A stretch of 64,000 nucleotides of DNA from an uncultured Bacillales bacterium (GTDB taxonomy: Bacteria > Bacillota_I > Bacilli_A > RF39 > UBA660). Shown here in pieces: positions 9,109 through 56,592 of this stretch. The number at the start of each line of letters is the position of its first letter. Position 1 is the stretch's first letter. The notes below the pieces were generated by a model. That model searched no databases. It was not told the origin of the DNA and worked only from the letters and a program-made list of their open reading frames with translations. The DNA lies in NCBI GenBank assembly GCA_946536225.1, contig CAMNEE010000002.1, positions 309,584-373,583 of the forward strand, in the 5' to 3' direction. The translations under genes were made by a program, and so were the position numbers.

Positions 9109-9558
9109 GTGATTCAAAAAGTAACTCTAAAATATGTAGTTATAGCAAGTTTTATATTAGGTGTAATGTTTACTTTATCCTTTGGTATATATGGATATAG
9201 TTATTATGATATCTATTTACATCGTGATACAACAGGTGGCATAGTTGAAAAAGTAAACTTAAAAGATGGTACATCAGTTGTAAGATATACAGTAGAAGAC
9301 ATTACAGTTAAAAAGACTATGCATTTTATAGATACAAATGTTAAAGAAGGAGACTCAATAACTATCTATTATGATAAACGTGATCCTGGAGCATCTTTTA
9401 TCTATGAACAAGCTATGATGATTTTTATTCTTTTCTTAATAGGAATATTCTCATTATGTGTATTTGTAGTAACATTTATTATCTATAAAAAAAGACCAAA
9501 AAAGAAAAGTGTAAAAACTAAAAAAAAGAAAAGTGTAAAAGTTTTGTCAAAAAAATAA
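9109..9558 (+). CDS. Two-TM membrane protein, DUF3592-like
   Basis: A beta-rich module is bracketed by two TM helices, with a Lys-rich tail. It has a GTG start abutting the previous stop. The assignment rests on pattern only. Confidence 0.45.
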   Translation: MIQKVTLKYVVIASFILGVMFTLSFGIYGYSYYDIYLHRDTTGGIVEKVNLKDGTSVVRYTVEDITVKKTMHFIDTNVKEGDSITIYYDKRDPGASFIYEQAMMIFILFLIGIFSLCVFVVTFIIYKKRPKKKSVKTKKKKSVKVLSKK

Positions 9559-11197: not shown

Positions 11198-11746
11198 ATG
11201 ACAAGAGTTAAAGGCGGAAACGTTGCAAAGAATAGACGTAGAAAAGTTTTAAAAAGAGCTAAAGGTTACTTTGGTTCAAAACACAGATTATTCAAAACTG
11301 CTCAAGAACAATTAATGCATTCAGGACATTATGCTTATAGAGACAGAAAGATGAATAAGAGAAACTTCAGAAAGTTATGGATTACAAGAATTAATGCTGC
11401 TTGTAGAATGAATGATATTTCTTACTCAAGATTTATCAATGGACTTTCTAAAGCTGGAGTTATTATCAATAGAAAGATGCTTTCAGAAGTAGCTATCGAT
11501 AATGCTAAATTATTTGCATCATATGTTGAAATTGCTAAAGATGCTTTAGCTGGTAAAACAGTTAAAACTGCTGAAGTTAAAAAAGCTAACAAAGAAGTAG
11601 CTGCTGCTACTCCAGAAGTTGAAGCTGAAGCTACTGATTTAAATTCATTAAAAGTTGCTGAATTAAGAGAAATGGCTACTGCTAATGGAATTAAAGATGC
11701 TGCATCAATGAAAAAAGCTGAATTAGTTGAAGCTTTAAGCAAGTAA
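11198..11746 (+). CDS. rplT: 50S ribosomal protein L20 with ~65-aa C-terminal extension
   Basis: The N-terminal ~118 aa are canonical L20 ([26 protein letters not shown]...[22 protein letters not shown]). An extra Ala/Glu-rich linker and an [30 protein letters not shown] helix-extended-helix motif follow. Confidence 0.9.
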
Positions 11747-13930: not shown

Positions 13931-13958
13931 TCAGTTAAATTAATTGATTATTTTTTTT
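13928..13958 (+). terminator. Probable (AT-rich) terminator after tmk
   Basis: The hairpin taatcagttaa/a/ttaattgatta is followed by T8. The stem is AT-rich and therefore weak. Confidence 0.45.
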
Positions 13959-13972
13959 GTATAAATTATAAT
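13944..13972 (+). promoter_or_regulatory. Candidate promoter of the T4SS-like operon
   Basis: TTGATT (13944-13949), a 17-nt spacer and TATAAT (13967-13972), 35 nt upstream of ATG 14008. Confidence 0.4.
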
Positions 13973-14007
13973 TAAAAAGAGAGATTATGTAGGAAGAAGG
14001 AAAATAT

Positions 14008-16830
14008 ATGTTTTTGATAGATGTAACAGAATGGGTAGCCAATTGGTTTTGGGATACATTAGATGAAATTTTTATTACAATCTTCGATTTCTTTCTATAT
14101 AGTATTGTAGGTTTCTTATACAAAGTATTCGTAATGCTAGGATCAATGGATATTTTTGGTAATAGTAACGATGCAATGTCACTTTATACACAATTTACAA
14201 ATAGACTATATGGCATAATTGGAATAATTATGATATTTGTATTATCTTACCAGATAATCTTATTTATAATCGATCCAGATAAAGGTGCTAAGGCATCATC
14301 TGAACTAGTTAAAAATTTAGTTAGAGGAATTGTTCTAGTTGCATTATGTCCTTTAATATTCCATTATGCATCAGTTTTTCAAAAAGATATATTAACTGAT
14401 AACACAATTTGGTCAGTTGTACTTGGTACAAATGCAACAAGTAGTGATAATCCTATTCAAGCAGGAAATTCTATGGCGACGATGGTTTATATGACGATGT
14501 TCCATCCGACGGGTACAGAATATAATGACTTCTTTGATGCAAAAGGTGAATTACAACCATACAAAGATGCATGTTATGGATTTGCAAAGATGTTTGATGG
14601 TGATTTATCAAATGACTCGGATAATGATGATGGACAAGCAGTATCTAAATCAAGTTTAAGAAGAGCAACAGACTGGGGCTTAAAATGGGGACTAGCCGGT
14701 TCTGTATTTGGAGTTGGATGGCTTACTGGTGCCGCTGGATTCCTAGTAGGAGGAGTAGTTGATATTTTCCATGGACTTGCAAATTGGATAACTGGTAAAG
14801 AAGACCCTAAACTAACAGCATGCCAAGAATATTGGATAAATTTATATGCTGCTTCTGGTGGAACTGGTGGTCCAACTGGCGATGAAAATTATAATAAAAT
14901 GTCGGCGTATAGTCTTAGTTCTAAAGCTAAAGACCCATATAAAGATGATGGAACTACGATTGATGCAATTAAAAACGGATATTTAAATGGAGCAAGTATT
15001 ATAGCTGCAAATGTTACACTTGCGGATGAAGTAAGAGATGAAGGATCGATGGAATACTTCTATTTTGCACCTGTTATCGGTGGAATATTAGTATTTATGT
15101 TAATTGCATACTCACTTGATATGGCGTATCGTGCATTTAAACTTGCATTCCTTGAGATGATTGCACCAATTCCAATTTTACTTGGTGTAATACCTAAACA
15201 AGATGGCATATTTAAAAAATGGGTTGATATGACACTTAAGACTTATATAGATGTATTTGTAAGAGTATTTGTAATGGCATTCGTTGTCTATATGATTAAT
15301 CTCGTACCAACGTTTGTTGGAGCTCTATTCAAAGGTGCTTCAGGTGGTCTTGAAGGTGGAGCATTACTTAAAGCAATTGTAATAGCGTTCTTAGCAATTG
15401 GTTTATTAAGATTTGCTAAAGAATTACCTGATATGGTAAAAGACATTGTTAAGGGTGGTGGAGGATTCCTAAAAGATATAGATATAAATCCTATGAAATC
15501 ATTCAAAAAAGCAAAAGCTGGTATCGACAATGCAGCCAAACCAATTGGTGCAGCAGTTGGTGCAGCAGCAGGTGGAATTGCAGCATTAAAGAGTTCACAT
15601 GCTAGAAATCCAAAAGAAGGTGGATTCGGAAATGTAATAAGAGGATTAAAAGGAACTTCTGCATTTGCTAAAGGATTTGCTACTGGTGGTAAAGAAGGCT
15701 GGAAGAATGGTCTAAATAAAGGTAGTCTAACAAATGCTGTTAATAGAGCCAATGTAGAAAGCGGTAGAAAAGAATTACAAAGAGATGCTGTTGTAAGTGG
15801 TATTAAGGGTATTATGAAACCAGGTGGTGTACAAAATCTTGCAGGTATTCTTACAAATGGTAGATTTGGTGAATTTAAGAATGCATGGAATAATAATCTA
15901 CTTGATGATCAATTATTACAAGCCGGTACTATTTACAGAGATATGGCTAACGGTGGTAAACAATTCTTTAAGGGCGCTGATAGTCAAATCGAAACTGTTA
16001 AAAAGAGTACAGAAAAAGCATTGGAAGAAATTAAACCAAGAGTTTTAAGTGAAGCTGAAGTAACAAGCAGGAAAAAAGCATATAGCGATACTATTAAAGA
16101 TTTACAAGATAGATTAGCTCGTGGAGATGATAGTGTAAAATCTATAAATGTTGATGGATTTGAATATAAAGCAAAATCTACAGATGCTTTAATTCAAAAA
16201 CTTCAAAAAGAACAAGCTCTTGTTTCGGATAAAGAATATGTGGCTGAATATCGTGGTAAAGTAATTAGAAAACTAGATTATAGTCAACTTGAAACTGAAA
16301 TTAAAAATGAGGAAAGAAAAGCTATTCGCGAAAAACAAATTGAAGAAACTTCTAAGGTTATTGGTGAAGAAGGATACGACAATGTTAAGTTATATGCAGC
16401 TAAATCACAAGAACTTGATATGAGAAATAAAGACATTCTAAATCCTGTTCAACTTAAAGCACAAGGCGATGAACTTGAAAAAGCATTTAAGGGAGACAAT
16501 GGTCAAATGATGCTTGATTTCCTTAAAATAGATGCTGACCAAAAACGTGATCTTGGAGCTATTACTCAAGCCATCCAAAAAATTGATTTTGATCAAATTA
16601 AGAGTGATGGTGGTACAACAATTAATGGCAAAACAGTTTCAGAGGAAGAAATTAGAAATATGGTTGGAGAACTAGTAGTTTCTATATCTAACGCTGAAGG
16701 TAAAGTTGCTAGCAAAGTTAGAAATATCCAATCTTCACTTGAAGGTACTAAGATCGATATGGTTGGTCGTAGCATGGATAACTTAACTCCTGGACCTCCA
16801 AAAGATGGAGATAAAGGCGGTAAAAAATAA
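14008..16830 (+). CDS. VirB6/TcpH/ConG-like polytopic T4SS channel protein with long C-terminal soluble region
   Basis: The 940-aa protein has about 8-9 TM helices in the first ~470 aa. A Gly-rich segment and a Lys/Glu-rich coiled-coil-like tail follow. It is the first gene of the T4SS operon, in the position and with the architecture of Tn916 Orf15, ICEBs1 ConG and pCW3 TcpH. Confidence 0.65.
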   Translation: MFLIDVTEWVANWFWDTLDEIFITIFDFFLYSIVGFLYKVFVMLGSMDIFGNSNDAMSLYTQFTNRLYGIIGIIMIFVLSYQIILFIIDPDKGAKASSELVKNLVRGIVLVALCPLIFHYASVFQKDILTDNTIWSVVLGTNATSSDNPIQAGNSMATMVYMTMFHPTGTEYNDFFDAKGELQPYKDACYGFAKMFDGDLSNDSDNDDGQAVSKSSLRRATDWGLKWGLAGSVFGVGWLTGAAGFLVGGVVDIFHGLANWITGKEDPKLTACQEYWINLYAASGGTGGPTGDENYNKMSAYSLSSKAKDPYKDDGTTIDAIKNGYLNGASIIAANVTLADEVRDEGSMEYFYFAPVIGGILVFMLIAYSLDMAYRAFKLAFLEMIAPIPILLGVIPKQDGIFKKWVDMTLKTYIDVFVRVFVMAFVVYMINLVPTFVGALFKGASGGLEGGALLKAIVIAFLAIGLLRFAKELPDMVKDIVKGGGGFLKDIDINPMKSFKKAKAGIDNAAKPIGAAVGAAAGGIAALKSSHARNPKEGGFGNVIRGLKGTSAFAKGFATGGKEGWKNGLNKGSLTNAVNRANVESGRKELQRDAVVSGIKGIMKPGGVQNLAGILTNGRFGEFKNAWNNNLLDDQLLQAGTIYRDMANGGKQFFKGADSQIETVKKSTEKALEEIKPRVLSEAEVTSRKKAYSDTIKDLQDRLARGDDSVKSINVDGFEYKAKSTDALIQKLQKEQALVSDKEYVAEYRGKVIRKLDYSQLETEIKNEERKAIREKQIEETSKVIGEEGYDNVKLYAAKSQELDMRNKDILNPVQLKAQGDELEKAFKGDNGQMMLDFLKIDADQKRDLGAITQAIQKIDFDQIKSDGGTTINGKTVSEEEIRNMVGELVVSISNAEGKVASKVRNIQSSLEGTKIDMVGRSMDNLTPGPPKDGDKGGKK

Positions 16831-16860
16831 CAATAGATAGAATGAAAAGGAGGCAAAGAT

Positions 16861-17184
16861 ATGAATAATAGATATTTAATACCTGCCAATACTAAACGTT
16901 CTATGTTGATTTTAGGATTATTTACTAAGGTAGACCTAGTGATATTTATTGTAGGTGTCGTACTAACAATTATGCTTATGATGATTGTTGGCTCCGACAC
17001 CCCACTGGCTATCGGTGTTAATTTAGCACCATTATTAATCACTACTATCATGGTAGCCCCTGTACCAAATCATAGAAATGTTTGGAATTTTACGGTAAAT
17101 GTTTATACATTTTTTGCTAATCAAAGAAAATATAGATGGAGAGGTTGGTGTATGTTACATGGCGAAGACGAAGAATCAAAGTAG
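16861..17184 (+). CDS. PrgI-family (VirB3-like) small membrane protein
   Basis: MNNRYLIPANTKRSMLILGLFTKVDLVIFIVG... gives two TM helices and a basic tail (RKYRWRG). It lies immediately upstream of VirB4, as PrgI/ConD do. Confidence 0.65.
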   Translation: MNNRYLIPANTKRSMLILGLFTKVDLVIFIVGVVLTIMLMMIVGSDTPLAIGVNLAPLLITTIMVAPVPNHRNVWNFTVNVYTFFANQRKYRWRGWCMLHGEDEESK

Positions 17185-17749
17185 TGGATCTACAAAGTTT
17201 ACAGAAGACTGGTTACCTATAATTGATATCAAAAATGGGTATATTAGAGTAAAAGGTGAAGGAATATTAGGAGGGGAGCAATATGTTACAGGTGTACGTA
17301 TTGAACCTAAAAATATCTTTATCACTGATACACAAAATCAAAATTTAGTAATTTCATCACTTATGGATTTCTATAATACGATGCATACTGAATTCTGGTT
17401 AGTATGTTGTGATAGACCTGTTGATATCAATTTATATAAATCAGAACTTGAAATAATGTTAAACGAAACACAAAGTCCACAAATAAGAAAATTAATTTCT
17501 GAAGATATTCGTAAATGTGAACAATTCAGTGGTCCTACATATAATTCTGTAGATACTGAATTCTACATACTTGTTAAAGATAGCGTTAAAAATATTGATA
17601 AATTACAAAAGGTTGTTTCTCAAATGATAGCTGGACTAGCACAAAGTCAATTAAATTCACGTCAAATAACAGATGAAGATGCAAGAGTAATTCTTGATAG
17701 TTTCTTTAATGACGGATTAAGAACAGAATTTGGAACGGTGATGAGTTAA
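17159..17749 (+). CDS. VirB4-family protein, N-terminal fragment as a separate ORF
   Basis: FTEDWLPIIDIKNGYIRVKG..YVTGVRIEPKNIFITDTQNQ...FWLVCCDRPVDINLY follows the pattern at the N-terminus of Gram-positive VirB4 (Tn916 Orf16-type). The start is ATG 17159, after ggagaggttggtg. Confidence 0.65.
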   Translation: MAKTKNQSSGSTKFTEDWLPIIDIKNGYIRVKGEGILGGEQYVTGVRIEPKNIFITDTQNQNLVISSLMDFYNTMHTEFWLVCCDRPVDINLYKSELEIMLNETQSPQIRKLISEDIRKCEQFSGPTYNSVDTEFYILVKDSVKNIDKLQKVVSQMIAGLAQSQLNSRQITDEDARVILDSFFNDGLRTEFGTVMS

Positions 17750-19542
17750 TGGCAAAACCTACATTTAAAAGTGAAATTGCACCTAAAGGGTTGAATTTTA
17801 AACCTAGACAATTTGAAATAGGTGACAAGTTCGCAGTTATTTATACAGTATTAGAATTTCCTTCAGTCATTGGACCTGGATATTTAAGCAATATTTCTTC
17901 AATTCCAGGAGCAAAAGTTGTTGTTAAACACATTCCAATTGACTTTTCGGTAATGCAAAGAGCTATCAATAAAGAAGTAATAGAGTTAAAAGAAGAATAT
18001 CAAAAAGAAAACGACTTAACATTTAAAGAGAGAATTAGAAATGACTATGAATCTCTTGAAAACTTTGTTTCAATGCTTGCATCAACTCAATCAAAAGTAT
18101 TTGATTTCCAATTACATATAATGATTACAGCTGATTCTCAAGAAGAATTAGATGCAAGAAAAGTTCAAGTTAAAAATTATTTAGTATCGCTTCAAATGAG
18201 AGCAATACCAATGATGTTTGAACAAGAAAAATGTTTAAAATCAATGATTCCTGTGTTCCCATCACAAGATATTGAAAAGAGAATTGGTGTTCCAATACCA
18301 TCTCCAACAATAGCTGCTATGTATCCATATGTATTCGATAGCATTAAGGATACTGGAAGGGGTACATTACTTGGAATGGACTCATCTGGTGGTGTAGTTT
18401 TATTCAACCAATTCTTATATCAAAAGAAGAAAGAGCAAAATAGAAATAATGCTAACCTAATCATTCTAGGTACATCTGGTTCAGGTAAATCTACAACTGC
18501 TAAACTACTTCTTCGTGGTCATATTAGAAATGAATATCAAATCATTTGTATTGACCCTGAAGGTGAACTTGAATCAATGGCAAAAACATTTGGTGGTTCA
18601 TTCGTAGATTTAGGTAAAGGTGGATCATATGGTATGATTAATCCACTTGAAATAGTTGCTGATACAGATGAAGGCGATGATGGTGCACATGCAGGTAACT
18701 CAATATTAACAAGTGCATTACAATCAGTAAGAGCATTCATGAAATATTATGTTCCTGATATTGAAGATGATGTACTTCAAATGTTTAGTGAAGTTTTACA
18801 AGAAACTTATAAACGTTTTGGAATAGATTATGAATCTGATTTCACTAAGATGAAGAGTGAAAACTATCCAACATTTGATGATGTTTATACAACAGTAAAA
18901 GGTAAGTTAATAGCAATGCCTGAAGCAACTCGTGAAAGAGATGTAATGGAAAGACTAGAACTTAGAGTTAGACCTTTTATCAATGAAGCAAGATATTATT
19001 TTAATGGTCACACAACTATTAAATCTGATTCAAACTTTATTGTATTTAGTATTAAAAACTTAATGAATGGTGATATTAATACTCGTAATGCACTATTCTT
19101 TAACATATTAAAATATGCATGGAGCTTAAGTTTAGACAAGTCAGTTAACTCTGTAATGTACGTTGATGAAGCTCACGTATTATTATCAGGAAGCAATGAA
19201 CTTGGAGCTGATTACTTAGCTCAAATGCAAAGACGTGCTAGAAAATATAACACTGGTACAATAATTGTTACACAACAACCTACAGACTTTGCAGCAGAAA
19301 AGATTATTACTCAAGGTAAAGCAATTTTCGATAATGCTTCATACTATTTAGTAATGGGTCTTAAGAAACAAGCTGTTGAAGACTTAGCTAAGTTAATAGA
19401 TTTAAATGATGCTGAAAAAGAAAGTATCAAAACATATCCACAAGGAAGAGGTTTATTCGTATGTGGATCTAGAAGAATGATAATAGACGTTGTACTTACA
19501 CAAGATGAATTAGATTCATTCGGTGGAGGCGGCGGCCTATAG
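17749..19542 (+). CDS. virB4: VirB4-family T4SS ATPase (main body)
   Basis: It has Walker A ILGTSGSGKSTTAKLL, Walker B VMYVDEAHVLL and IIVTQQPTDF. The N-terminal IAPKGLNFKPRQFEIGDKF...EFPSVIGPGYL is typical of TrsE/VirB4. The start overlaps the upstream stop (TAATG). Confidence 0.85.
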   Translation: MAKPTFKSEIAPKGLNFKPRQFEIGDKFAVIYTVLEFPSVIGPGYLSNISSIPGAKVVVKHIPIDFSVMQRAINKEVIELKEEYQKENDLTFKERIRNDYESLENFVSMLASTQSKVFDFQLHIMITADSQEELDARKVQVKNYLVSLQMRAIPMMFEQEKCLKSMIPVFPSQDIEKRIGVPIPSPTIAAMYPYVFDSIKDTGRGTLLGMDSSGGVVLFNQFLYQKKKEQNRNNANLIILGTSGSGKSTTAKLLLRGHIRNEYQIICIDPEGELESMAKTFGGSFVDLGKGGSYGMINPLEIVADTDEGDDGAHAGNSILTSALQSVRAFMKYYVPDIEDDVLQMFSEVLQETYKRFGIDYESDFTKMKSENYPTFDDVYTTVKGKLIAMPEATRERDVMERLELRVRPFINEARYYFNGHTTIKSDSNFIVFSIKNLMNGDINTRNALFFNILKYAWSLSLDKSVNSVMYVDEAHVLLSGSNELGADYLAQMQRRARKYNTGTIIVTQQPTDFAAEKIITQGKAIFDNASYYLVMGLKKQAVEDLAKLIDLNDAEKESIKTYPQGRGLFVCGSRRMIIDVVLTQDELDSFGGGGGL

Positions 19543-19559
19543 AATTAGGCGGTGATCTT

Positions 19560-21902
19560 ATGAAGTGTTTAACTAGAAAAAAGATAATGCTATTACTAAG
19601 AAGTGTTTTCGTAATAGCACTTTTTTCGGTTGCAGTATTTAATATGATGCCTGTTAAAGCAGATAAAGATTACAGTCAATTTGACTTTAACACATTAGAA
19701 GAACAAAATAAGGATAGATGGTTAGCGTATTGTAATGATGCATTTGTTGAATACGGAAAAAAAGAACAAGAAAAGTGTTATGATACGCTTACTGCTAATT
19801 TAAAGAAATTTTATGAAAAAATGTATAAGATACTATCTAAGTATCAAGAAAGGGATCTTTATATTAATGACCAAGTAATTCTTTGGACAGTATTCTTTAG
19901 TCAGTTTTCTACACCTTCAACAGATGCAGACAGTCACAAAGTAAACGCTGATGATAATTTATCTTTATATGAGCAATTTGCAAAAGACTACTTTGGCTTT
20001 AACTTAGATGAATCAGATGGAAGTGATGTATCAGTTGATGTTGACTATTCAAAGATAGATTATTATGCAAAAGAAACAGATACATTAAAAACGCTTATTA
20101 GAAATGCTGTAGCATATGCAACAGTTTGTTATGGTGTAAATGGAACACCAACAGTTACAACTGCTGAGGATGGGTCTAAACATTATGAGTGTCAAGATGG
20201 CTATGCAGCATACGATAATATAGTTGGAGAAAGTGGGTATGTATGTGCCCAAAAAATTAGCTATAACGAAATGGGATTCTGGAAATATTTCACTAGTAAA
20301 ATAGCTCATGATGAGCGCTTAGGAATATTCCAAAATGTTTTCTTCCTAGGAAAACTATTCCCTGATCCACATTATGATGAGTGTATTGCAAAAGAAGGAT
20401 ATGAAAGAGTTCATTATCAATATGAAGATGATCCTCATGTAAGTTACACAATGTATTTTGATTTCTTGAAAGAAAATAGATATTTTGATGGTAAATCAAA
20501 TTTACAATATTATTTTGAAGACGTACTTATGCTTGCAGATGTTGATTGCTTGATGGATGATGTTTGTGAAAATTCTTTACAAGCAAAAGATGCAGAAAAC
20601 CCAGGTGAATATGACAAATGGGAAGAACGTTTGATGCAAGATAGATTAAAAATTATTTATGATATATTAGAGTTCCTAGATTATTATGGAATAGGAATTG
20701 AATATGCAGCCTTTATACCTGAAAGTAAACTTATTCCAGGTGGAGGTGCAGGGGATAGAACAGCATATTATTGGCCAATTGGTAGTGATGCTACTGAGGA
20801 AAGAGATGGTATTACTTATGCTGATAAAGACCCAGCTAGTACAACTATTACAAGTTATTTTGGTAAAAGAACTCACCCAATTACAGGCGAAGAACATACT
20901 CATACTGGTATAGATATAGCTGGTAAAAGAGGAGAAACAAATGTAATAGCTTCTGAAAAAGGTGAAGTTATATCAATTGTTAATACATGTACTGAAGGAG
21001 ACTTAAAATGTGGAGGAGGATATGGTAATCATATTATCATTTCTCATAACGATGGATATTTCACATTATATGGTCACTTAGCTTCTGTTGATCCAGCAGT
21101 AAATGTTGGTGGAAGTGTTATGAAAGGACAAGTTATTGGTAAAGTTGGTTCAACTGGTAATTCAACTGGACCACACTTACACTTTGAAGTAAGAAAAGAT
21201 ACTAACTCATCATCACACGCAATTGATCCACTTACAATATTAAGTGTTTCACAACCTCGTCCAACTGGCTATAAAGGTGGAGACTTCTCAATGAGAAAAA
21301 CTGCTTTATCAAAAGAAGAATTTGTTTCAGCATTAAAAAATTATTGTAATTCTGGTAAATGTAATGGAAGCAAGGGTCTACAATATTTTGCTGAAAGAGC
21401 AGAAACAATTTATGATTTGTCTACTCAAAATGGTTTGAATCCAGAATTTACTGTAGTACGTGCTATATCTGAAGGATTCTCTCCACATTTCACATGTAAT
21501 AGTAGTTCAAATAACCATTGGGGTATTGGATGCTCTAATGGTGGAGGATGTGGAGCATGTTCAAAATATTCAAGTTTTGAAAATGGTATTGTAGGACTTT
21601 CAAATTTAGGAATTGTCAAAAAATATGATTCAGCTCTTGAAGTATTTACAAAAGGACATTATGCATATATTGGTGATAGATGGTTATCCCCAGGTAATTC
21701 TGCTGATGGTGGTTGTTATTATTTCCCACATATTAAAGAATACTATACCGATACAGCAAGACGAGCAGAAGTAGAAAGTGCTTGTTCTAGAAGTTGTAGT
21801 GGTTCGTCATGTTTAAAGACAAATGATGCAGACCAAGAAGCTTATGGATATTATCAAATACGTGGTATGACTAAAGCAAGATATAACATTTGGGGATTGT
21901 AG
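19560..21902 (+). CDS. Secreted T4SS cell-wall hydrolase: N-terminal unknown domain + M23 endopeptidase + GH73/FlgJ-like lysozyme domain
   Basis: The signal peptide ends ..MPVKA/DKD. The M23 motifs are HTHTGIDIAG, GYGNHIIISH and GPHLHFEVR. The C-terminal AISEGFSP...NNHWGIG resembles the glucosaminidase E / NxxFGIK motifs. About 20 Cys are present. Confidence 0.75.
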   Translation: MKCLTRKKIMLLLRSVFVIALFSVAVFNMMPVKADKDYSQFDFNTLEEQNKDRWLAYCNDAFVEYGKKEQEKCYDTLTANLKKFYEKMYKILSKYQERDLYINDQVILWTVFFSQFSTPSTDADSHKVNADDNLSLYEQFAKDYFGFNLDESDGSDVSVDVDYSKIDYYAKETDTLKTLIRNAVAYATVCYGVNGTPTVTTAEDGSKHYECQDGYAAYDNIVGESGYVCAQKISYNEMGFWKYFTSKIAHDERLGIFQNVFFLGKLFPDPHYDECIAKEGYERVHYQYEDDPHVSYTMYFDFLKENRYFDGKSNLQYYFEDVLMLADVDCLMDDVCENSLQAKDAENPGEYDKWEERLMQDRLKIIYDILEFLDYYGIGIEYAAFIPESKLIPGGGAGDRTAYYWPIGSDATEERDGITYADKDPASTTITSYFGKRTHPITGEEHTHTGIDIAGKRGETNVIASEKGEVISIVNTCTEGDLKCGGGYGNHIIISHNDGYFTLYGHLASVDPAVNVGGSVMKGQVIGKVGSTGNSTGPHLHFEVRKDTNSSSHAIDPLTILSVSQPRPTGYKGGDFSMRKTALSKEEFVSALKNYCNSGKCNGSKGLQYFAERAETIYDLSTQNGLNPEFTVVRAISEGFSPHFTCNSSSNNHWGIGCSNGGGCGACSKYSSFENGIVGLSNLGIVKKYDSALEVFTKGHYAYIGDRWLSPGNSADGGCYYFPHIKEYYTDTARRAEVESACSRSCSGSSCLKTNDADQEAYGYYQIRGMTKARYNIWGL

Positions 21903-21910
21903 GTGATAGT

Positions 21911-22462
21911 ATGGCTCAAGAAAAAATAACAAAAGAAGAGAAAAAAGTTTTAAGTATTTGGGCAAGCGTGGTAGTAGTATTAGTTGTAGTATTATTAATA
22001 CTAAACCACTTTTTCCCAATTAAAACACTTATTAATTCTCTATATGGAAAAAATACTGAAATAATAAATAAATATACAATAATTGGAGACTATTCCAGAT
22101 ACTCAACCGTATCTGGAGCTCTTCAAAAGTATTATTCATTTGTTAATGCAAAAGATTATGATTCAGTAATTAAAATATTAAATGAAGAGTACGTTAAAGA
22201 TAATAAAATTACAAAAGATAATATAGAAGATTTTATTTCATTCCCTGATGATAAATATGTAACATTTGACCCAAATATAATGTATAGAAAATCTCTTAAA
22301 GAAGGAGTTTATTCATATATTATGGATGGAGAAATAGAAGAAAGAGATACAGGGGACGTACTTGGAAAAACATACTATCAAGTTATACTTGATGGTAATA
22401 CATTCTTGTTTAGTGTAAAACCTCTTACAGAAGAAGAATATGGAGGTCTTAAAAATGAATAA
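21911..22462 (+). CDS. Small bitopic T4SS-operon protein (possible VirB8-like/NTF2-like)
   Basis: One TM helix (IWASVVVVLVVVLLIL) is followed by a ~140-aa ectodomain with an NTF2-like opening (ALQKYYSFVNAKDYDSVIKILNEEY). The function is inferred from context only. Confidence 0.4.
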   Translation: MAQEKITKEEKKVLSIWASVVVVLVVVLLILNHFFPIKTLINSLYGKNTEIINKYTIIGDYSRYSTVSGALQKYYSFVNAKDYDSVIKILNEEYVKDNKITKDNIEDFISFPDDKYVTFDPNIMYRKSLKEGVYSYIMDGEIEERDTGDVLGKTYYQVILDGNTFLFSVKPLTEEEYGGLKNE

Positions 22463-22964
22463 GAAAGTAGTTAAAGAATTTATTAAAGAAAATTTTATAT
22501 GGTGTTTCTTGTTAGTATTCGTAATCTTTGGATTAGGTGGTGCAAAACTTTACAACTACATTAATAATAAAGTAGTTGATAGTAGAACATATGAAAAGCA
22601 AGATATAAATATTGAATATGAACCTAAGAATTACGAAGTTAATCAATATAAAGTTATTGAAAGAACAGATGAAGAATTAGCAGAATTCTATTATGATCAA
22701 ATAAAGAAGATGTGGATTAATAATCCAGGTGAACTATATGATAGAATGACTGAAAAAGCTAAATCTTTAAATGGAACAAGAGAAGAATTTATTAAAAAGA
22801 TATCTAAATATGTAACTTCCCAAACTCCATCATCAAAAGTAGCATTCTACAGAGTTGAAAATGGAAGTGTAGTTATATTAACAAATGAGAAGATGGAAAT
22901 AATATTAGATACAAACGGAATTAATAATTATAAAATATCATTAATGGCTCAATCAACAAGATAA
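22455..22964 (+). CDS. Small bitopic T4SS-operon protein, same architecture as the preceding ORF
   Basis: The start ATG 22455 lies 7 nt after ggaggt and overlaps the upstream ORF by 8 nt. One TM helix is followed by a ~130-aa ectodomain. Confidence 0.4.
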   Translation: MNKKVVKEFIKENFIWCFLLVFVIFGLGGAKLYNYINNKVVDSRTYEKQDINIEYEPKNYEVNQYKVIERTDEELAEFYYDQIKKMWINNPGELYDRMTEKAKSLNGTREEFIKKISKYVTSQTPSSKVAFYRVENGSVVILTNEKMEIILDTNGINNYKISLMAQSTR

Positions 22965-22983
22965 AAAGAAAGGAGATGGTATC

Positions 22984-24405
22984 ATGAATCCAGGAGCAAT
23001 AGCAAATGCAGCAGGATCTGCAGCCGGTAGTGCTGCAACAAACGCTGCAGGTAATGTCGCAAGTAATGCTGCAAGCAATGTTGCTAACAATGCAGGAAAT
23101 ATTGCAGGTAAAGCCGCCGCCACAAATGTTCCACAACAACCAAAAGTTGGTGCTACTGCACCAGAACCTGGTGCTTCTACTGGTACCGCTCCTAGTATTG
23201 ATTCTGCTCCAGAAGGTGGTAACAGTACTCTTGATAAAGTAAAAGATGCTGCTGAAAAGACAGACCAATTATCTGGAGATGAAAACCAAAATGGTGTTCA
23301 AGCAGGTGAAGGTGAAGAAGGACCTAAACCTGGAGATAAAGTTGATACAGGTAAAAAGATTGGTGAAGATGGACAAGTCGAGGATTCATCTACAGCTAAA
23401 TCAATAAAAGCAGCAGGAAGAGTTGTTGCAAGAGTATACGGTGGTGAAGCTGGAGGCCAAGCTGCTGATATGGTTGCTAAAAGTAAACTAGGAGATAAAG
23501 CGATAGGAGTTGTTTCTGACGTTGCTGATAAAGCACCAGGAGTTAAACAAGCAACAGAAGTGCTAGATAAAGCAGGTATTGCTGATGGTGTTAATGATGC
23601 ACTTGATACTTATGAAAAAGCAAAAAGTGGAGATTTAAAAGGTGCAGCAGAATCTGCAAAGAAAACTAAAAAAGATTTAAAGAAAACAAAAAAATTCATG
23701 TTGCCTTTTATTATACTTGGTTCTCTACCAATTATAATACCAGCAATTGCAGTTATAGCAGTTGTTGCTGTCGCTGCTCAATCACTTAGTTTTGAATCTA
23801 CTAAATCCACAGAAGATATATATCAAAATATGTATTATTATGAATGGCCTGAACATCCTGAAAATGAATCTGGTGAAGGTGGTGGAGGAGAATCAGGACC
23901 ATCTTATGGTGGAGATTATGAAGGTGAAGCTGCAAAAGTACCAAAAAGTGAAAGAATGAAATGGTTATTCCCTGATGGAGTACCAACTACGGAATCAGAA
24001 ATGCAAAAATATTTAAGTTCAATATCTGTTCCTATATGGACTGGATCTGGTACATCAACAATGAATTTAAGAATTCATTCAAAACTTGCTTCTACATATC
24101 AAAAGATATTTGAAGAAATGGCAGCAATAAAGTTCCCAGTTGATCCTAGATGTACAGGAGGATATAATTGGAGACCAATGTCAACAAATCCAAATAAACA
24201 ATCTTACCATAGTTATGGATCAGTTGTAGACCTTAACTGGACTTATAATCCTTTAGTATATGGTACTGGTAATCCTTACTTAGGTATTTCTCCATATGCA
24301 ATAACTCAAGATGTAGCTAACATTTGGAAAAAGTATGGATTCTATTGGGGTGGAGATTGGACTTCATACCAAGATTACATGCATTTTACTTATACAAATA
24401 ATTAA
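22984..24405 (+). CDS. Membrane-anchored peptidase M15 (VanY/endolysin-like, M15_4-type) with long low-complexity N-terminal arm
   Basis: The C-terminus has SYHSYGSVVDLNW and YWGGDWTSYQDYMHFTY (zinc-ligand motifs SxHxxGxAxD and D..H). A central TM helix is preceded by KKTKKDLKKTKK. The N-terminal ~235 aa are Ala/Asn/Gly repeats followed by charged low complexity. Confidence 0.75.
   Translation: MNPGAIANAAGSAAGSAATNAAGNVASNAASNVANNAGNIAGKAAATNVPQQPKVGATAPEPGASTGTAPSIDSAPEGGNSTLDKVKDAAEKTDQLSGDENQNGVQAGEGEEGPKPGDKVDTGKKIGEDGQVEDSSTAKSIKAAGRVVARVYGGEAGGQAADMVAKSKLGDKAIGVVSDVADKAPGVKQATEVLDKAGIADGVNDALDTYEKAKSGDLKGAAESAKKTKKDLKKTKKFMLPFIILGSLPIIIPAIAVIAVVAVAAQSLSFESTKSTEDIYQNMYYYEWPEHPENESGEGGGGESGPSYGGDYEGEAAKVPKSERMKWLFPDGVPTTESEMQKYLSSISVPIWTGSGTSTMNLRIHSKLASTYQKIFEEMAAIKFPVDPRCTGGYNWRPMSTNPNKQSYHSYGSVVDLNWTYNPLVYGTGNPYLGISPYAITQDVANIWKKYGFYWGGDWTSYQDYMHFTYTNN
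22993..23130 (+). repeat. Coding low-complexity repeat (GCN/AAT/GGN-rich; Ala-Asn-Gly repeats)
   Basis: It translates to AIANAAGSAAGSAATNAAGNVASNAASNVANNAGNIAGKAAATN, with degenerate 15-18-nt periodicity visible in the DNA. Confidence 0.7.
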
Positions 24406-24422
24406 AAGAAAGAGTGATTTAT

Positions 24423-25091
24423 ATGAATAATAAGAAAGTATATGTTATGGTTTTAATTCTTTCTTTTTTTGTTTTAGGAATATACTCAATTAATTCCTTA
24501 AATACGCCAACAACAAATATTAATATTAATGTTAAAACTTATTTTGATGAAAACTACTTACCAATTGAACAAGTATTTGATGAATATGAACATATAGATG
24601 ATATACTAGTTGATAACAAATGGGATATTAGTTCAAGTGAATATATAAAGTTTGATCAATCTACAGCAAGAATATATAAATATGATGAAGAAGGAAAAGA
24701 AATTGGTAGATATTCATATAGTATTATAGAAACTCTAGGAATTAATAAGAGTACAACTGAAAAAACAGATTTATCAATACTTTATAAAATGACTATTAAT
24801 AATCAACCACAAGATGTATATATGACAATAGTTACAGAAGATCCAAATACAAAAGTATTATCTTATTATCTAAAATGTGATTATTTTTCAAACAGTTCAG
24901 TAAAAATGGATAATACAACAATAAAAGTAGAACCATCTACTGTTGAAGAAGAAACAGCTACTGTTACAAATGAAAAAGAAAAGAAAATAAATAGTATATA
25001 TTTAATTGTAATTGGAGTATTTGCTATTATACTTTTAATTGCAATAATATTTGTTTTATTAAAGTTTGCAAGTGCAGCTAATAAGTATTAG
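24423..25091 (+). CDS. Hypothetical T4SS-operon protein with N- and C-terminal TM anchors
   Basis: It has an N-terminal signal/anchor (VMVLILSFFVLGIY), a ~170-aa ectodomain and a C-terminal TM helix (IYLIVIGVFAIILLIAIIFVLL). No sorting motif is present. Confidence 0.5.
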   Translation: MNNKKVYVMVLILSFFVLGIYSINSLNTPTTNININVKTYFDENYLPIEQVFDEYEHIDDILVDNKWDISSSEYIKFDQSTARIYKYDEEGKEIGRYSYSIIETLGINKSTTEKTDLSILYKMTINNQPQDVYMTIVTEDPNTKVLSYYLKCDYFSNSSVKMDNTTIKVEPSTVEEETATVTNEKEKKINSIYLIVIGVFAIILLIAIIFVLLKFASAANKY

Positions 25092-25188
25092 TTGACACTC
25101 CAGTAAGCAGTAATGTTATTATCTAAGCATAAATTTATAGAAAAAAGAACGAAAGTATATTATACTATTCGGTGAAAGAAGGGTTATT

Positions 25189-27729
25189 ATGAAGTTCAAG
25201 TTTAACGTCACAGCAAAAGATTTTACAACTTTTCTAATATTTAGTGCATTCTTACTTATTACCTGTTCTTTAGGTGTAGGTATTGTATTAACTCTACTAA
25301 GAGGAGAAGAACTTACTTTAAATCCATTTATTGGTTTTATGCCAAATAATATATTATTTACATTACTTATATTTTTTGTAGTTGAAATAGTAATATTCTC
25401 ATCTGTTTCATCAAGTATATTTGAAAAGAGTGATTCTGCAGGATTCGGACTTTCATTTGGTGAAAAAGATTCAAAAGGATATTCTAGATGGTTAAAAGAA
25501 AAAGAAATGAAAAAACAATATAAAATTGTTGAAGTAGGTGTTCAAGATGCCGATGCTTCAGCAGCTGGTGTTGTTTTAATTAATAATGGGAAAAGAATGT
25601 GGGTAGATAATGGTGAATACCACACACTTGTAATCGGAGTTACTGGTTCAGGTAAAACATCTGCCGTTATTAATCCACTTATATATAGTTTAATTAAAGC
25701 TAAAGAATCTATGGTTCTAACAGACCCTAAAGGTGAACTTTATAGAACACATGCAAACCACTTAAAAGCACGTGGTTATAATGTTATAGTTTTAAACTTC
25801 CGTGAACCTGAAAAAGGCAATGCATGGAATCCATTAACACTTCCTTATACTTTATATAAAGAAGGAAATGTTGATAAAGCAGTAGAACTTGTAGATGACG
25901 TAGGTAAAAATATCGTTAAAGATGCTAAAGCAGATGATCCATTCTGGCAAGATTCTGCTGGTGACTACTTCTCAGGTTGTGCTCTTGGTCTAATTCAAGA
26001 TGCAAAAGAAGAAGAAGTTAATATTAACTCGATTAATATTATGACAACAGTAGGTGAAGAAAAATTCGGTGCTGGATCTAACTATATTAAGGAATACTTT
26101 GGACTTAAAGGTGAAGATTCATCAGCATACGTATTTGCTTCAAATACAATTAACTCACCAACAGAAACAAAAGGTGGTATCCTTTCAACATTTAGACAAA
26201 AGATTCGTGTATTCGCATCACGTGAAAATTTATCTGAAATGCTTTCTCATAGTGACTTTAGTATGGCAGATATTGGTAAAAAACCAACTGCAGTATTTAT
26301 AGTTATTCATGATGAAAAAACAACATACCATGCTCTTGCAACAATATTTATTAAACAATGTTACGAAACATTAATTGATGTTGCTCAAGCTAATGGTGGA
26401 GCTCTTCCTGTAAGAACAAACTTCTTACTAGATGAGTTTGCCAACATGCCAGCGTTAAAAGACGTTACAACAATGGTTACAGCAGCACGTTCAAGACATA
26501 TTAGATTTACATTTATCATTCAAAACTTTGCCCAATTAAACGATGTTTATGGTAAAGATGATGCTGAAACAATTCGTTCTAACTGTGGTAACTTAATTTA
26601 CTTACTTACAACAGAACTTGCAGCTCTTGAAGAAATATCTAAACTATGTGGTGAAGTTAAGAGTAAAAAGGATGATAAGAGTGAATCACATCCATTAATT
26701 ACTGTTGCTGACTTACAAAAACTACAAATGAATGAAGTTATCGTTTTAAGAAATAGAGCTCATCCATTTAAAACTAAATTTACTCAAGCATTTAATATCG
26801 ACTGGGGAGATGAAAAATATCCTGAAGCTGAATTTGTTACTAGAGAAAAACAACCAATTCAAATATTTGATATTAAAGAATTTGTAAAACTACGTATGAA
26901 GTCTAAAATGGGAGCTAATGGTGGAATGCCTGGTGGAGGACAAAAGAATCCATTTGGTGGGCTTCCTGGAAATCCATTTGCAGCACTTATGGGTGGTGGC
27001 CCTGGTTCATCTCCTATGGGTAATCCTATGGCCTCTTCTGCACCATCTTCAAGAGGAATATCTCCATTTGAAGAGATGATGAAGAGTAATCAAGGTGGAG
27101 CTCGTCCAGTTCCTCCAAGAAACGAAGGACCACAAAATAGATCAACTGGATTTAATATTGAAGAATTAATGAAGAAGATTGACGCAAAGATTGCTGAACT
27201 TGAAGCAGAAGAAGCAGCTGAAAATGAAGCAAATAAAGCTAAAGAAACAACTGATTCTAATAAATTTAATCCACTTATTGATGCATCCCCTGCTAAAGAC
27301 TTAGAAACAAAACCTAAGAGTGATGTATCAAGTGATTTAGGAGAACCAGAAGAAAAAGCAACAACTACATCATCAATTGCATCATTTAGTGAAATGGTTA
27401 ATAAAGCCATGCATAGTGAACCAAAATCATCACCAATGGTTACTAATCCAATTGATACTGAAACTAAGGCACCTGTGATGCCTACAGAACCAATTATTAA
27501 TAAACCATTAGGTGGAATAGTTGATCCAACTAAACAAATGACTTATGAAATGTACAAGAATGACGCTAATACAAAAGAAATAAAGGTTGAACCTGTTCAA
27601 CAACAAGAACAAGTACCTCCTCAAACTGTAAAGGAAACACCTAAAGTTGAGAAGGTTGAAGTTAAACCAAACCCTTATGATAACGTATCTGACGATCAAT
27701 TCTTTGATGATTTCTTTGACGAAGAATAA
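25189..27729 (+). CDS. virD4: VirD4/TraG-family type IV coupling protein with ~275-aa disordered C-terminal tail
   Basis: Two N-terminal TM helices are followed by Walker A VIGVTGSGKTSAVINP, LTDPKGELY, Walker B NFLLDEFANMP and RSRHIRFTFIIQNFAQL. The tail is Gly/Pro/Met-rich, then acidic, and ends DDQFFDDFFDEE. Confidence 0.85.
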   Translation: MKFKFNVTAKDFTTFLIFSAFLLITCSLGVGIVLTLLRGEELTLNPFIGFMPNNILFTLLIFFVVEIVIFSSVSSSIFEKSDSAGFGLSFGEKDSKGYSRWLKEKEMKKQYKIVEVGVQDADASAAGVVLINNGKRMWVDNGEYHTLVIGVTGSGKTSAVINPLIYSLIKAKESMVLTDPKGELYRTHANHLKARGYNVIVLNFREPEKGNAWNPLTLPYTLYKEGNVDKAVELVDDVGKNIVKDAKADDPFWQDSAGDYFSGCALGLIQDAKEEEVNINSINIMTTVGEEKFGAGSNYIKEYFGLKGEDSSAYVFASNTINSPTETKGGILSTFRQKIRVFASRENLSEMLSHSDFSMADIGKKPTAVFIVIHDEKTTYHALATIFIKQCYETLIDVAQANGGALPVRTNFLLDEFANMPALKDVTTMVTAARSRHIRFTFIIQNFAQLNDVYGKDDAETIRSNCGNLIYLLTTELAALEEISKLCGEVKSKKDDKSESHPLITVADLQKLQMNEVIVLRNRAHPFKTKFTQAFNIDWGDEKYPEAEFVTREKQPIQIFDIKEFVKLRMKSKMGANGGMPGGGQKNPFGGLPGNPFAALMGGGPGSSPMGNPMASSAPSSRGISPFEEMMKSNQGGARPVPPRNEGPQNRSTGFNIEELMKKIDAKIAELEAEEAAENEANKAKETTDSNKFNPLIDASPAKDLETKPKSDVSSDLGEPEEKATTTSSIASFSEMVNKAMHSEPKSSPMVTNPIDTETKAPVMPTEPIINKPLGGIVDPTKQMTYEMYKNDANTKEIKVEPVQQQEQVPPQTVKETPKVEKVEVKPNPYDNVSDDQFFDDFFDEE

Positions 27730-27747
27730 TTATTCTTCGTCTTTTTT
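27718..27747 (+). terminator. Strong intrinsic terminator closing the T4SS-like operon
   Basis: gacgaagaat/aatt/attcttcgtc (10-bp GC-containing stem) is followed by T6. The stop codon lies inside the hairpin. Confidence 0.8.
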
Positions 27748-46392: not shown

Positions 46393-47595
46393 ATGAAGAT
46401 ATTATCTGTAAATGCGGGAAGTAGTTCCCTAAAATTCAGATTATACGATATGCCAAAAGAAGAACTTCTAATGAAAGGTACAATCGAAAGAATTGGACTA
46501 TCTGATGGAGTATATAGCATTCGTATTGGGGATACTAAGATCGAAAAAGACATAGATTTTGCAGATCATGAAGAAGCTGTACAACTATTACTTAAAGATT
46601 TAGTAGACCAAAAAGTGATTAAGTCATTAGACGAAATTAAAGCCGTAGGTCATAGAATCGTTCACGGTGGTAACAAATACTCAAAGAGTGTTGTTTTAAC
46701 AAAAAGAGTTATTAAAGAAATAAATGATATTTCTGATTTAGCTCCATTACATAATCCAGCTGGATTACTAGGAGTCCAAGCTTTCGTGGATAATGTACCT
46801 GAAGCTGTTAACGTAGCATGTTTCGATACTGCATTCCATCAAACAATGGAACCAGCAGCATTCCTTTATGCTATTCCATATGAATGGTATGTTAAATACG
46901 ATGTAAGAAAATATGGTTTCCATGGACTTTCTCATAAGTTCATTACAGAAACTATGATTGAAAAATTAAAGAATAAAAAACCAAATTTAATAATTTGTCA
47001 TATTGGTAATGGTGCTTCAATAAGTGCTATTAAAGAAGGTAAATGTATTGATACAACTATGGGTATGACTCCAAATGCAGGACTTATGATGGGTACTCGT
47101 TCAGGAGATATTGATCATACATTAATTCAATATGTTAAGAAAAAAACTGGATACTCATCTGAAAAGATTAATGAAATCTTAAATAAAGAATCTGGTCTTG
47201 AAGGAATTGCTGGTATGTCTGACTTAAGAGATATCGATAGAGCATATGAAGCAAAAGAAGATAAAGTAGTATTAGCAATTGAAATGTATACTCAAAGAAT
47301 TGCTAATTATATAGCACAATACTTCATTAAACTTGATGGTAAAATTGATGGTATCGTATTTACTGCTGGCGGTGGAGAAAATGATCCAATCATCAGAAGA
47401 GAATCTATCAAAAAAGTTCATGCACTTGGAATTAAGTTAGATGAAGAAAAGAATGAAGAAACAATTACTAGAAAAGGTAAAGAAGGAATTATTTCTACTA
47501 AAGACTCTAAAGTACCTGTTTATGTAGTTGCTACTGATGAAGAATTAATGATTGCAAGAGATACTTATAGACTTGCAACTGAAGAAGAAGCTTAA
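46393..47595 (+). CDS. ackA: Acetate kinase (copy 1)
   Basis: It has ILSVNAGSSSLKF, GHRIVHGG, LAPLHNP, FDTAFHQTM, KYGFHG, GTRSGDID and ATDEELMIA. Confidence 0.9.
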   Translation: MKILSVNAGSSSLKFRLYDMPKEELLMKGTIERIGLSDGVYSIRIGDTKIEKDIDFADHEEAVQLLLKDLVDQKVIKSLDEIKAVGHRIVHGGNKYSKSVVLTKRVIKEINDISDLAPLHNPAGLLGVQAFVDNVPEAVNVACFDTAFHQTMEPAAFLYAIPYEWYVKYDVRKYGFHGLSHKFITETMIEKLKNKKPNLIICHIGNGASISAIKEGKCIDTTMGMTPNAGLMMGTRSGDIDHTLIQYVKKKTGYSSEKINEILNKESGLEGIAGMSDLRDIDRAYEAKEDKVVLAIEMYTQRIANYIAQYFIKLDGKIDGIVFTAGGGENDPIIRRESIKKVHALGIKLDEEKNEETITRKGKEGIISTKDSKVPVYVVATDEELMIARDTYRLATEEEA

Positions 47596-47610
47596 TAGCT
47601 TCTTTTTTAT
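47585..47610 (+). terminator. Terminator between the two acetate kinase genes
   Basis: aagaagct/taat/agcttctt is followed by T residues. Confidence 0.7.
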
Positions 47611-47708
47611 TACTTAAATATAAAGTAAATAGGGCGTTTGTAAATAGTTTTTTATTGAGAGAAAAGTCATAGTTTAGTATAATAAATACGGAAAAGAGGA
47701 GAATATAA

Positions 47709-56556: not shown

Positions 56557-56592
56557 AATATAATAATGATAATATTAAATTAGGTGAGTTTA

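Follow-up and report, generated by a model that had tools for sequence, protein, structure and literature searches.

The 64,000-nucleotide stretch analyzed here (the window) comes from contig CAMNEE010000002.1 of an uncultured bacterium of the GTDB order RF39, and carries, between housekeeping genes, a gene set for a type IV secretion system (T4SS). Ten co-directional and tightly coupled open reading frames (ORFs), designated T1 to T10, occupy positions 14008-27729 of the + strand. With starts chosen to fit ribosome-binding sites, successive ORFs are spaced by 30, -26, -1 (a TAATG junction), 17, 8, -8, 19, 17, and 97 nt. This pattern of gaps and overlaps matches the original prediction, which was made by a model from the letters of the DNA and had counted eleven ORFs; our recount gives ten. 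Both of the elements said to bracket the block were located. A sigma-70-like promoter box (TTGATT-17-TATAAT, 13944-13972, +) matches the consensus within the 77-nt spacer between tmk and T1, and an intrinsic-terminator-like hairpin with a 10-bp stem and a tail of six T residues (27718-27741, +) overlaps the stop codon of the last gene, virD4. Since this AT-rich DNA yields no excess of promoter-like matches (76 found, 88.7 expected), the box by itself is weak evidence; terminator-like sites show a modest excess (10 found, 4.3 expected). A candidate internal promoter ahead of virD4 (TTGACA at 25092, with a 19-nt spacer to TATTAT) fell beyond the spacer range of the scan and is not claimed. An alternative genetic code (Mollicute code 4) was ruled out, as all ORFs are long and intact under translation table 11.

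To place these genes among their relatives, ORFs were called and clustered in 83 loci, consisting of 82 related loci and the window region (relatives are cited by L numbers where they need to be told apart). The VirB4 ATPase that the original prediction recognized is firmly assigned. T4 (597 aa, 17749-19542, +) constitutes its C-terminal motor domain, matching Pfam P-loop_TraG (50 bits) and AAA_10 (48 bits) above cut-off and two NCBIfam VirB4 models with E = 5.8e-107 (VirB4_plasma) and 7e-55. Walker A (GTSGSGKST) and Walker B (VMYVDEAH) motifs are readable. The best curated model was NF045975, which describes an ATPase of mycoplasma integrative and conjugative elements (ICEs); at 358.5 bits against a cut-off of 590 bits, T4 is not a member of that family. 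The preceding ORF, T3 (196 aa, 17159-17749, +), corresponds to a detached, TrsD-like VirB4 N-terminal domain, as it aligns to positions 86-277 of VirB4_plasma (E = 1.6e-15); its precomputed Pfam assignment is a weak TraC-like match. In 83 of 83 loci T3 has an ORF of its own, which in most cases overlaps VirB4 by 1-8 nt. We considered whether the TAATG junction marked VirB4 as a pseudogene and rejected this, the split being present in every locus with exact conservation of length. By this comparison, T3 and T4 represent a conserved native split, and T3 belongs to VirB4 rather than being a separate protein of unknown kind.

T2 (107 aa, 16861-17184, +) has two transmembrane (TM) segments and was assigned from sub-threshold matches and position. 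It scored 22.9 bits against Pfam TcpE, below the cut-off of 29.9, and aligned to the VirB3 part of the fused mycoplasma VirB3-VirB4 model with E = 0.007. Because T2, T3, and T4 together tile this fused model (positions 2-96, 86-277, and 295-891, respectively), we read T2 as a VirB3/PrgI/TcpE-like protein. Its size, TM count, and position, which is kept upstream of VirB4 in 79 loci, fit the PrgI/VirB3-like identity first proposed; the Pfam family match does not reach threshold.

The remaining channel components were identified less directly. T1 (940 aa, 14008-16830, +) is a polytopic protein whose long and variable C-terminal half is rich in Gly and Ala and contains coiled coil. A VirB6/TrbL-like channel function is suggested by transitive homology: four homologues (P0304, P0312, P0314, and P0319) pass the Pfam TrbL_4 cut-off, residues 350-500 of T1 align to the TrbL_4 region, and the protein in the position of T1 at locus L134 is also a TrbL_4 protein. 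The VirB6-like reading is thus supported through homologues, while T1 itself has no direct match in Pfam or NCBIfam. An AlphaFold2 (AF2) model of T1 (pLDDT 72) returned TrwI/VirB6 of R388 as its top Foldseek match in the PDB. As this match is non-significant (E > 1), we did not count the fold search as stand-alone support.

Two small bitopic proteins follow the first wall hydrolase. T6 (183 aa, 21911-22462, +) combines an N-terminal TM helix with a predicted NTF2-like domain, a VirB8/TcpC-like architecture. Its AF2 model (pLDDT 79.3) matched NTF2 folds that include TcpC (3ub1), with a best E of only 2.7e-3 and with generic NTF2 proteins ranking higher. Chains of the R388 inner-membrane complex and arch were also among the Foldseek matches, and these we take to be VirB8. 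T7 (169 aa, 22455-22964, +) is distantly paralogous to T6 (hhalign between the two families, probability 83%) and adjoins it in approximately 30 loci. Neither protein matched Pfam or NCBIfam, and profiles of both families searched against PDB sequences gave nothing useful.

The operon ends with T10 (846 aa, 25189-27729, +), a VirD4-type coupling ATPase. This assignment, also made in the original prediction, is firm: T10 matches PF02534 (T4SS-DNA_transf, 198.6 bits), TraG-D_C (88 bits), and NF045973 (conju_CD1115, 291.5 bits against a cut-off of 250), and the motifs GVTGSGKTS, DPKGE, and FLLDEFAN are readable. Beyond the ATPase region lies a hypervariable linker, which differs widely in length and sequence among orthologues (659-846 aa for the whole protein), followed by an invariant acidic-aromatic C-terminal tail, SDDQFFDDFFDEE. 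In the window this tail is encoded at 27688-27726, the last 13 codons of virD4. The pattern (S/T)DD(Q/E)(F/Y)(F/Y)DDFF plus acidic residues was found in 65 of the 65 orthologues listed. Such conservation behind a freely varying linker looks like a docking motif for a conserved partner. In the F plasmid, the C-terminal tail of TraD is the docking site for TraM, a DNA-binding accessory protein.

Between the two ATPases the operon encodes two wall hydrolases and an envelope protein. T5 (780 aa, 19560-21902, +) is a secreted or anchored hydrolase with an uncharacterized N-terminal domain, an M23 endopeptidase domain (Peptidase_M23, 96.5 bits), and a C-terminal lysozyme-like domain. The last of these had been read as GH73-like, which is unsupported at threshold (Glucosaminidase, 14 bits only). 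An orthologue of T5 at locus L089 carries Phage_lysozyme2 at the corresponding position, and it is from this orthologue alone that we assign T5 a putative glycosidase domain. T8 (473 aa, 22984-24405, +) has a low-complexity stretch at its N terminus, then a TM segment, and ends in a peptidase domain (Peptidase_M15_4, 63.8 bits), so that both the M23 and the M15 hydrolase first proposed are secure. T9 (222 aa, 24423-25091, +) is an exported protein with a C-terminal TM anchor. It distantly resembles a family, cl7, of conserved anchored proteins that precede VirD4 in relatives (hhalign probability 87%); the only Pfam or NCBIfam matches of T9 were to EssA, below cut-off and confined to the TM tail. 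A second T9-like candidate, the ORF at 9109-9558, was discarded since its weak hidden Markov model (HMM) match covered only the TM/basic tail.

The locus is widespread and well preserved. The exact VirD4 protein of the window is present on 16 metagenome contigs, mainly from sheep rumen and up to 506 kb in length, and all eight contexts displayed share the same neighbors. For the VirB4 ATPase, homologues number more than 7,226, the best 120 of which are nearly all exactly 597 aa long, and at least 525 related loci with the same core occur in a one-genome-per-species (GTDB) collection. Their records are labeled "Bacilli bacterium", "uncultured Tenericutes", "Mollicutes bacterium", or "Acholeplasma sp. 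CAG:878", and the genus CAG-878 belongs to the order RF39 (PMC8035907). Two complete chromosomes among them measure approximately 1.5 Mb. Judged from these sequences, the T4SS belongs to a large clade of uncultured, low-GC, small-genome Bacilli of gut and rumen that includes RF39. At 50% clustering the VirB4 proteins of the whole clade collapse into one representative, with the next relatives at 42% identity. Named outgroups are 29-34% identical (Thomasclavelia, Solobacterium, a Mycoplasmatota plasmid, and Desulfocucumis); among the few names returned, the nearest all belong to Bacillota or Mycoplasmatota. The nearest plasmid-borne VirB4 in PLSDB is 28.8% identical.

Gene order and reading frames are maintained across this clade. 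All examined loci long enough to show it keep the order VirB6-VirB3-TrsD-VirB4. An intact VirB4 (594-598 aa) is present in 83 of 83 loci, and only one VirB6 and one VirD4 gene are split among the loci examined. Relatives with approximately 90% VirB4 identity share both junctions of the window (infC...tmk / T4SS / VTT-rmuC-ftsE), and the locus is identical in independent assemblies of the window's species. The tmk/T4SS/VTT junctions, whose conservation the original prediction had proposed as a check, are therefore common to close relatives and conspecific assemblies. In most other relatives the downstream order is VirD4-rhodanese-(VTT)-rmuC-RNase R-SmpB. Pairwise distances of VirB4 and RmuC across 36 loci are correlated (Pearson 0.91, Mantel p = 0.001), with VirB4 evolving more slowly (mean p-distance 0.21 vs 0.29). 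Compared with the close relative L094, the ratio of nonsynonymous to synonymous substitution rates (dN/dS) is 0.006 for VirB4 (T4) and 0.13-0.30 for T5-T10, and dS falls within the range seen for the flanking genes. Purifying selection acts on every gene tested (T4-T10). Synteny, intact ORFs, VirB4-RmuC co-divergence, and low dN/dS speak for a functional gene set that is inherited with the chromosome.

Rates differ widely inside this one operon. VirB4 is 99% identical to that of L094, and the envelope-exposed T5-T9 are 80-90% identical. In more distant relatives T5-T9 are replaced by other hydrolase types (CHAP/NlpC-like and lysozyme-like).

The surroundings of the block are those of a bacterial chromosome. 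Window GC ranges from 24 to 34%, almost every gene is encoded on the + strand, and positive GC skew extends along all 64 kb. Precomputed Pfam annotation of the flanking genes, from approximately 4.6 kb before the window to approximately 7 kb past it, returned housekeeping functions only. These include a murC-like ligase, cmk, rpoZ, infC-rpmI-rplT, tdk, tmk, a VTT/DedA-family gene, rmuC, and ftsEX, as well as cdsA, rseP, gyrB, xseAB, ackA, fmt, nusA-infB-rbfA-truB, and ppdK. The flanks named in the original prediction (infC-rpmI-rplT, tdk-tmk, the DedA-like gene, rmuC, and ftsEX) are all present as described. Its list of missing mobility genes also held up. No relaxase, recombinase, integrase, Rep, or Par family was present in the precomputed Pfam annotation of every called gene over these approximately 76 kb; the 64-kb window yielded neither a tRNA gene nor an Rfam match at gathering threshold; and no flanking direct repeats were found around the T4SS block. 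In annotated relatives, no relaxase lies within 10 kb on either side. Composition was compared with the flanks as well. Relative synonymous codon usage (RSCU) of the block is host-like, correlating with that of the flanks at r = 0.990, the same value as one half of the flanks against the other, and GC content at third codon positions is 0.152 in the block and 0.123 in the flanks. Codon usage, dN/dS, shared flanks, intact VirB4, and co-divergence with rmuC all agree with the earlier view that the block is maintained rather than a decaying ICE.

One mobile-element gene was seen in a prevalent human-gut species, in which an IS21-family IstB gene (L089:1-61 and L090:1-474) lies approximately 6 kb upstream of VirB6. 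The exact VirB4 protein of this species is on 279 contigs, and IstB is the only mobile-element gene seen near any of the annotated loci.

Relatives vary most in what stands upstream of VirB6. In most of them a co-directional Tad-like pilus module directly precedes it (L070:166-7162; also L044, L024, L066, and most of L023-L088), encoding RcpC/CpaB, a T2SSE ATPase, two polytopic membrane proteins, a small pilin, two pseudopilin-like proteins, and a TadZ-like protein. As the two membrane proteins gave no T2SSF match that would support TadB/TadC, we use the label Tad-like on the basis of RcpC/CpaB, the T2SSE ATPase, and gene order. This module is followed by two to four divergent genes for VirB2-like pilins, upstream of VirB6. 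In a sample of 45 proteins of the pilin family, 16 match Pfam T4SS_pilin (all scores seen being below cut-off) and 3 match CagC. Outside Patescibacteria, VirB2-like pilins of the kind seen here in a T4SS of Bacillota are reported as unknown. Searches of the 64-kb window with profile HMMs of eight families found neither VirB2-like pilin nor Tad-like genes, and a stripped locus of this kind, lacking both pilin array and Tad-like module, is shared by the window lineage and L009-L012, in which these genes would either lie elsewhere in the genome or have been lost.

Two further arrangements were found. L134 (5128-14979, on a 708-kb contig) and L135, both from Hadza gut and with 64% VirB4 identity, hold a minimal cluster without hydrolases: three small ORFs, VirB6 (TrbL_4), VirB3, TrsD, VirB4, VirD4, and two small ORFs. 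This cluster sits between the cell-division genes mraZ-rsmH-PBP (penicillin-binding protein) and a gerA spore-germination operon. The T4SS thus occupies more than one chromosomal site and may extend beyond RF39. In L031 (1-13568) and L042 (1-14611), a long VirB2-like array precedes VirB6-VirB3-TrsD-VirB4, which is immediately followed by housekeeping genes, either GltX and GlmM or RNase Y and AlaRS (alanyl-tRNA synthetase); this lineage has no VirD4 within 10 kb, as in most Patescibacteria. Separately, L105 (3114-11080), and likewise L103 and L107, with rmuC at approximately 60% identity, carry a bona fide Tad-type set of one T2SSE and two T2SSF genes upstream of feoB-VTT-rmuC with no T4SS between. 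This arrangement could be an ancestral state of the locus or one that followed loss.

A few features of the window lie apart from the T4SS. A 442-aa ORF at 56584-57912 (called as a 439-aa protein), 3' of rbfA, carries the Pfam N_methyl prepilin motif and encodes an unusually large pilin-like protein amid translation genes; at L134, a similar 591-aa protein with a weak N_methyl match adjoins mraZ. The rplT product (11198-11746, 182 aa) is an extended ribosomal protein L20 with Rho_N and weak HeH matches after the L20 domain, and upstream of infC-rpmI-rplT no ribosomal-protein leader family matched Rfam at gathering threshold. Tandem acetate kinase (PF00871) genes of 400 and 391 aa lie at 46393-48884.

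The original prediction could match the locus to no described system, a statement now out of date. A close analogue is the chromosomal, relaxase-less T4SS of Patescibacteria, or candidate phyla radiation (PMC10633639, PMC12102498, PMC12857230), exemplified by SEML1_0006-0019 of Southlakia epibionticum, where it is essential for epibiotic growth (PMC10633639, PMC12102498). Like the window system, it is of the monoderm mating-pair formation type MPF-FATA, resides on the chromosome of a lineage that has small genomes and is uncultured or dependent on a host, has no relaxase in the cluster, and is inherited within its clade. The two systems also share VirB6, a detached TrsD-like VirB4 N-terminal domain adjoining VirB4, and M23 plus lysozyme-type hydrolase genes immediately after virB4, with T2 as the putative counterpart of VirB3. 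Most relatives of the window, though not the window itself, additionally share the two to four divergent VirB2-like pilins adjoining VirB6. The window system differs in belonging to another phylum (Bacillota, class Bacilli), in having no pilin array within 64 kb, and in keeping VirD4 in the operon, as most of its relatives do, whereas in Patescibacteria the coupling protein is usually distant and not essential. Many relatives of the window have also added the Tad-like pilus module, and the nearest named VirB4 outgroups are Bacillota elements.

The conjugative T4SSs of Firmicutes (pGO1/pSK41/pIP501, Tn916, ICEBs1, pCW3, and pCF10) offer a second comparison. They share with the window VirB4, VirD4, a VirB6-like protein, and a dual-domain wall hydrolase, with T2 and T6 as candidate VirB3-like and VirB8-like (NTF2) counterparts, and the pGO1 subclass further shares a TrsC-TrsD-TrsE-like order with a detached VirB4 N-terminal domain, an arrangement that has been described along with the TrsD/VirB4 split (PMC12102498). 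In contrast to these elements, the window block has no relaxase, oriT, replication or integration module, or adhesin, is fixed in the chromosome amid housekeeping genes, and has a VirB4 that is at most 34% identical to theirs. The mycoplasma ICE ATPase family NF045975 (Mbov_0397/CDS17), the best-scoring curated VirB4 model and the one tiled by T2+T3+T4, differs in that T4 falls below its cut-off, that the window protein is split over three ORFs, and that no DDE recombinase or other ICE genes accompany it. Unlike mycoplasmas, the window organism has wall hydrolases, cell-wall machinery, and long uninterrupted ORFs under table 11. Finally, the "type IVC" T4SS of Streptococcus suis 89K has a minimal VirB1-, VirB3-, VirB4-, VirB6-, VirB8-, and VirD4-like set and is credited with protein secretion and not only DNA transfer (PMC12857230). 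It lies on a mobile pathogenicity island in few strains, whereas the window system is clade-wide and has no island features. According to a December 2025 review, nearly all known Gram-positive T4SSs transport only DNA, dedicated non-conjugative ones are a long-standing question, and the Patescibacteria T4SS is treated as unique among monoderms (PMC12857230). In the papers searched, RF39 in connection with type IV secretion or an epibiont lifestyle yielded no description of this Bacilli system.

Gene content, intact reading frames, selection, breadth, and the non-mobile setting are shown by these data; from the parts we infer how the machine would assemble, in which direction it would transport, what it would carry, and what ecological role it would have. 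With moderate confidence, we read the locus as a vertically inherited, chromosomally fixed monoderm (MPF-FATA) T4SS dedicated to contact-dependent export, with protein, or another non-conjugative cargo, favored over DNA as substrate. T1, T2, the split VirB4 (T3 plus T4), and the NTF2-like bitopic T6/T7 would form the membrane channel and its motor. T5, with its M23 and lysozyme-like domains, and T8, with its M15 domain, would open peptidoglycan locally, and T9 would act as an envelope-anchored accessory protein. VirD4 (T10) would recruit a cytoplasmic substrate, probably via a partner that docks on the DDxFFDDFF tail, and feed it into the channel. Export would proceed on contact, to or onto neighboring cells, and would serve a dependent lifestyle, for which the essential Patescibacteria T4SS provides the analogue.

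Several observations weigh against this interpretation. The VirB3, VirB6, and VirB8 assignments are putative, being sub-threshold or transitive. No substrate, effector, or immunity gene was identified. The relaxase search spans approximately 76 kb, and a relaxase or oriT encoded elsewhere in the genome would be compatible with the data. As rmuC is physically linked to the block, its co-divergence with VirB4 shows inheritance as a unit and not independent congruence with the species tree. Chromosomal context differs among lineages (tmk; the Tad module; the division and cell wall cluster with gerA; RNase Y), and an rmuC-anchored metagenome scan revealed several lineages, at 58-65% RmuC identity, with no T4SS upstream of rmuC. 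The contexts in these lineages are rearranged and are not precise empty sites; ancient mobility, or loss in some lineages, is possible. With neither pilins nor a Tad-like module beside it, the window machine may work differently from those of its relatives, or these genes may lie elsewhere. An operon-encoded VirD4 with a TraD-like acidic C-terminal tail also fits DNA transfer as well as protein export.

That last point leads to the strongest rival, in which the same fixed machine has a DNA substrate. On this view a conjugation-type system has been domesticated to move chromosomal DNA between cells or to release it, in the manner of mycoplasma chromosomal transfer or the Neisseria gonococcal genetic island, with a relaxase elsewhere or of an unrecognized type. 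VirD4 is kept in the operon and strongly conserved, and its acidic-aromatic tail recalls TraD-TraM docking. The best NCBIfam match of VirB4 is to a mycoplasma ICE ATPase model, and DNA is what nearly all known Gram-positive T4SSs transport (PMC12857230). The conserved downstream neighbor in many lineages, rmuC, belongs to a nuclease family; in other lineages this adjacency is absent, and one lineage lacks a VirD4 next to the core. Furthermore, no relaxase, single-stranded DNA-binding protein, primase, or oriT-like feature was found in the 64 kb or within 10 kb of the locus in annotated relatives. We regard DNA as possible but distinctly the less probable cargo.

A reading as an integrative conjugative or mobilizable element, or a decaying remnant of one, whose relaxase and integrase module lies outside the window, fares much worse. 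The gene set is that of a Firmicute conjugation channel, block GC is slightly above that of the flanks, context varies among distant lineages with an IS21 IstB upstream in one species, and some rmuC relatives have no block. Against this, in all lineages examined the block is immediately bordered by housekeeping genes, which extend more than 10 kb to either side. No att repeats, tRNA gene, or recombinase was found at the window locus. Codon usage equals that of the host, dN/dS is far below 1 for T4-T10, and the divergence of VirB4 tracks that of RmuC. The block recurs at no fewer than 525 loci in a collection holding one genome per species, with one copy per locus and VirB4 intact in all 83 examined, and no PLSDB plasmid VirB4 reaches 30% identity. 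We consider this explanation very improbable.

Equally improbable is a ComB-type competence machine that takes up environmental DNA, which an organism with a reduced genome would use for nucleotides or for recombination. ComB operates with no VirD4 coupling protein, yet the present system keeps VirD4 conserved, and the locus contains no ComEC-like or DprA-like gene. Uptake would suit the small genomes of the clade, with its two complete chromosomes of about 1.5 Mb, and the pairing of T4SS and Tad-like module in most relatives, since pili of the Tad-like superfamily support DNA uptake in some bacteria (PMC8513845, PMC6668835); yet the window lineage has no pilus module within 64 kb, and in Southlakia competence is separable from the essential function of the T4SS (PMC12857230).

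Returning to contact-dependent export, non-conjugative T4SSs are almost unknown in Gram-positive bacteria, hence the interest of a fixed chromosomal set. A second clade-wide, vertically inherited T4SS with no relaxase in its locus, this time inside Bacillota, would mean that domestication of the monoderm conjugation machine is not peculiar to Patescibacteria. More speculatively, the system may be the Bacillota counterpart of the essential Patescibacteria T4SS, and possibly its evolutionary relative or donor lineage, serving as a lifestyle organelle for cell attachment and exchange of material. We put this forward tentatively and think it rather unlikely as a whole. If it were true, VirB2-like pili and the Tad-like pilus would act alongside the T4SS in most lineages, and an abundant uncultured gut order would live by contact-dependent reliance on partner cells. 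RF39-type bacteria are common in the guts of humans, ruminants, rabbits, chickens, and mice, have genomes of approximately 1.5 Mb, and are essentially uncultured. A conserved contact machine offers a concrete hypothesis for their resistance to cultivation, and VirB4/VirD4, the pilins, and the invariant VirD4 tail would provide handles for the design of co-cultures.

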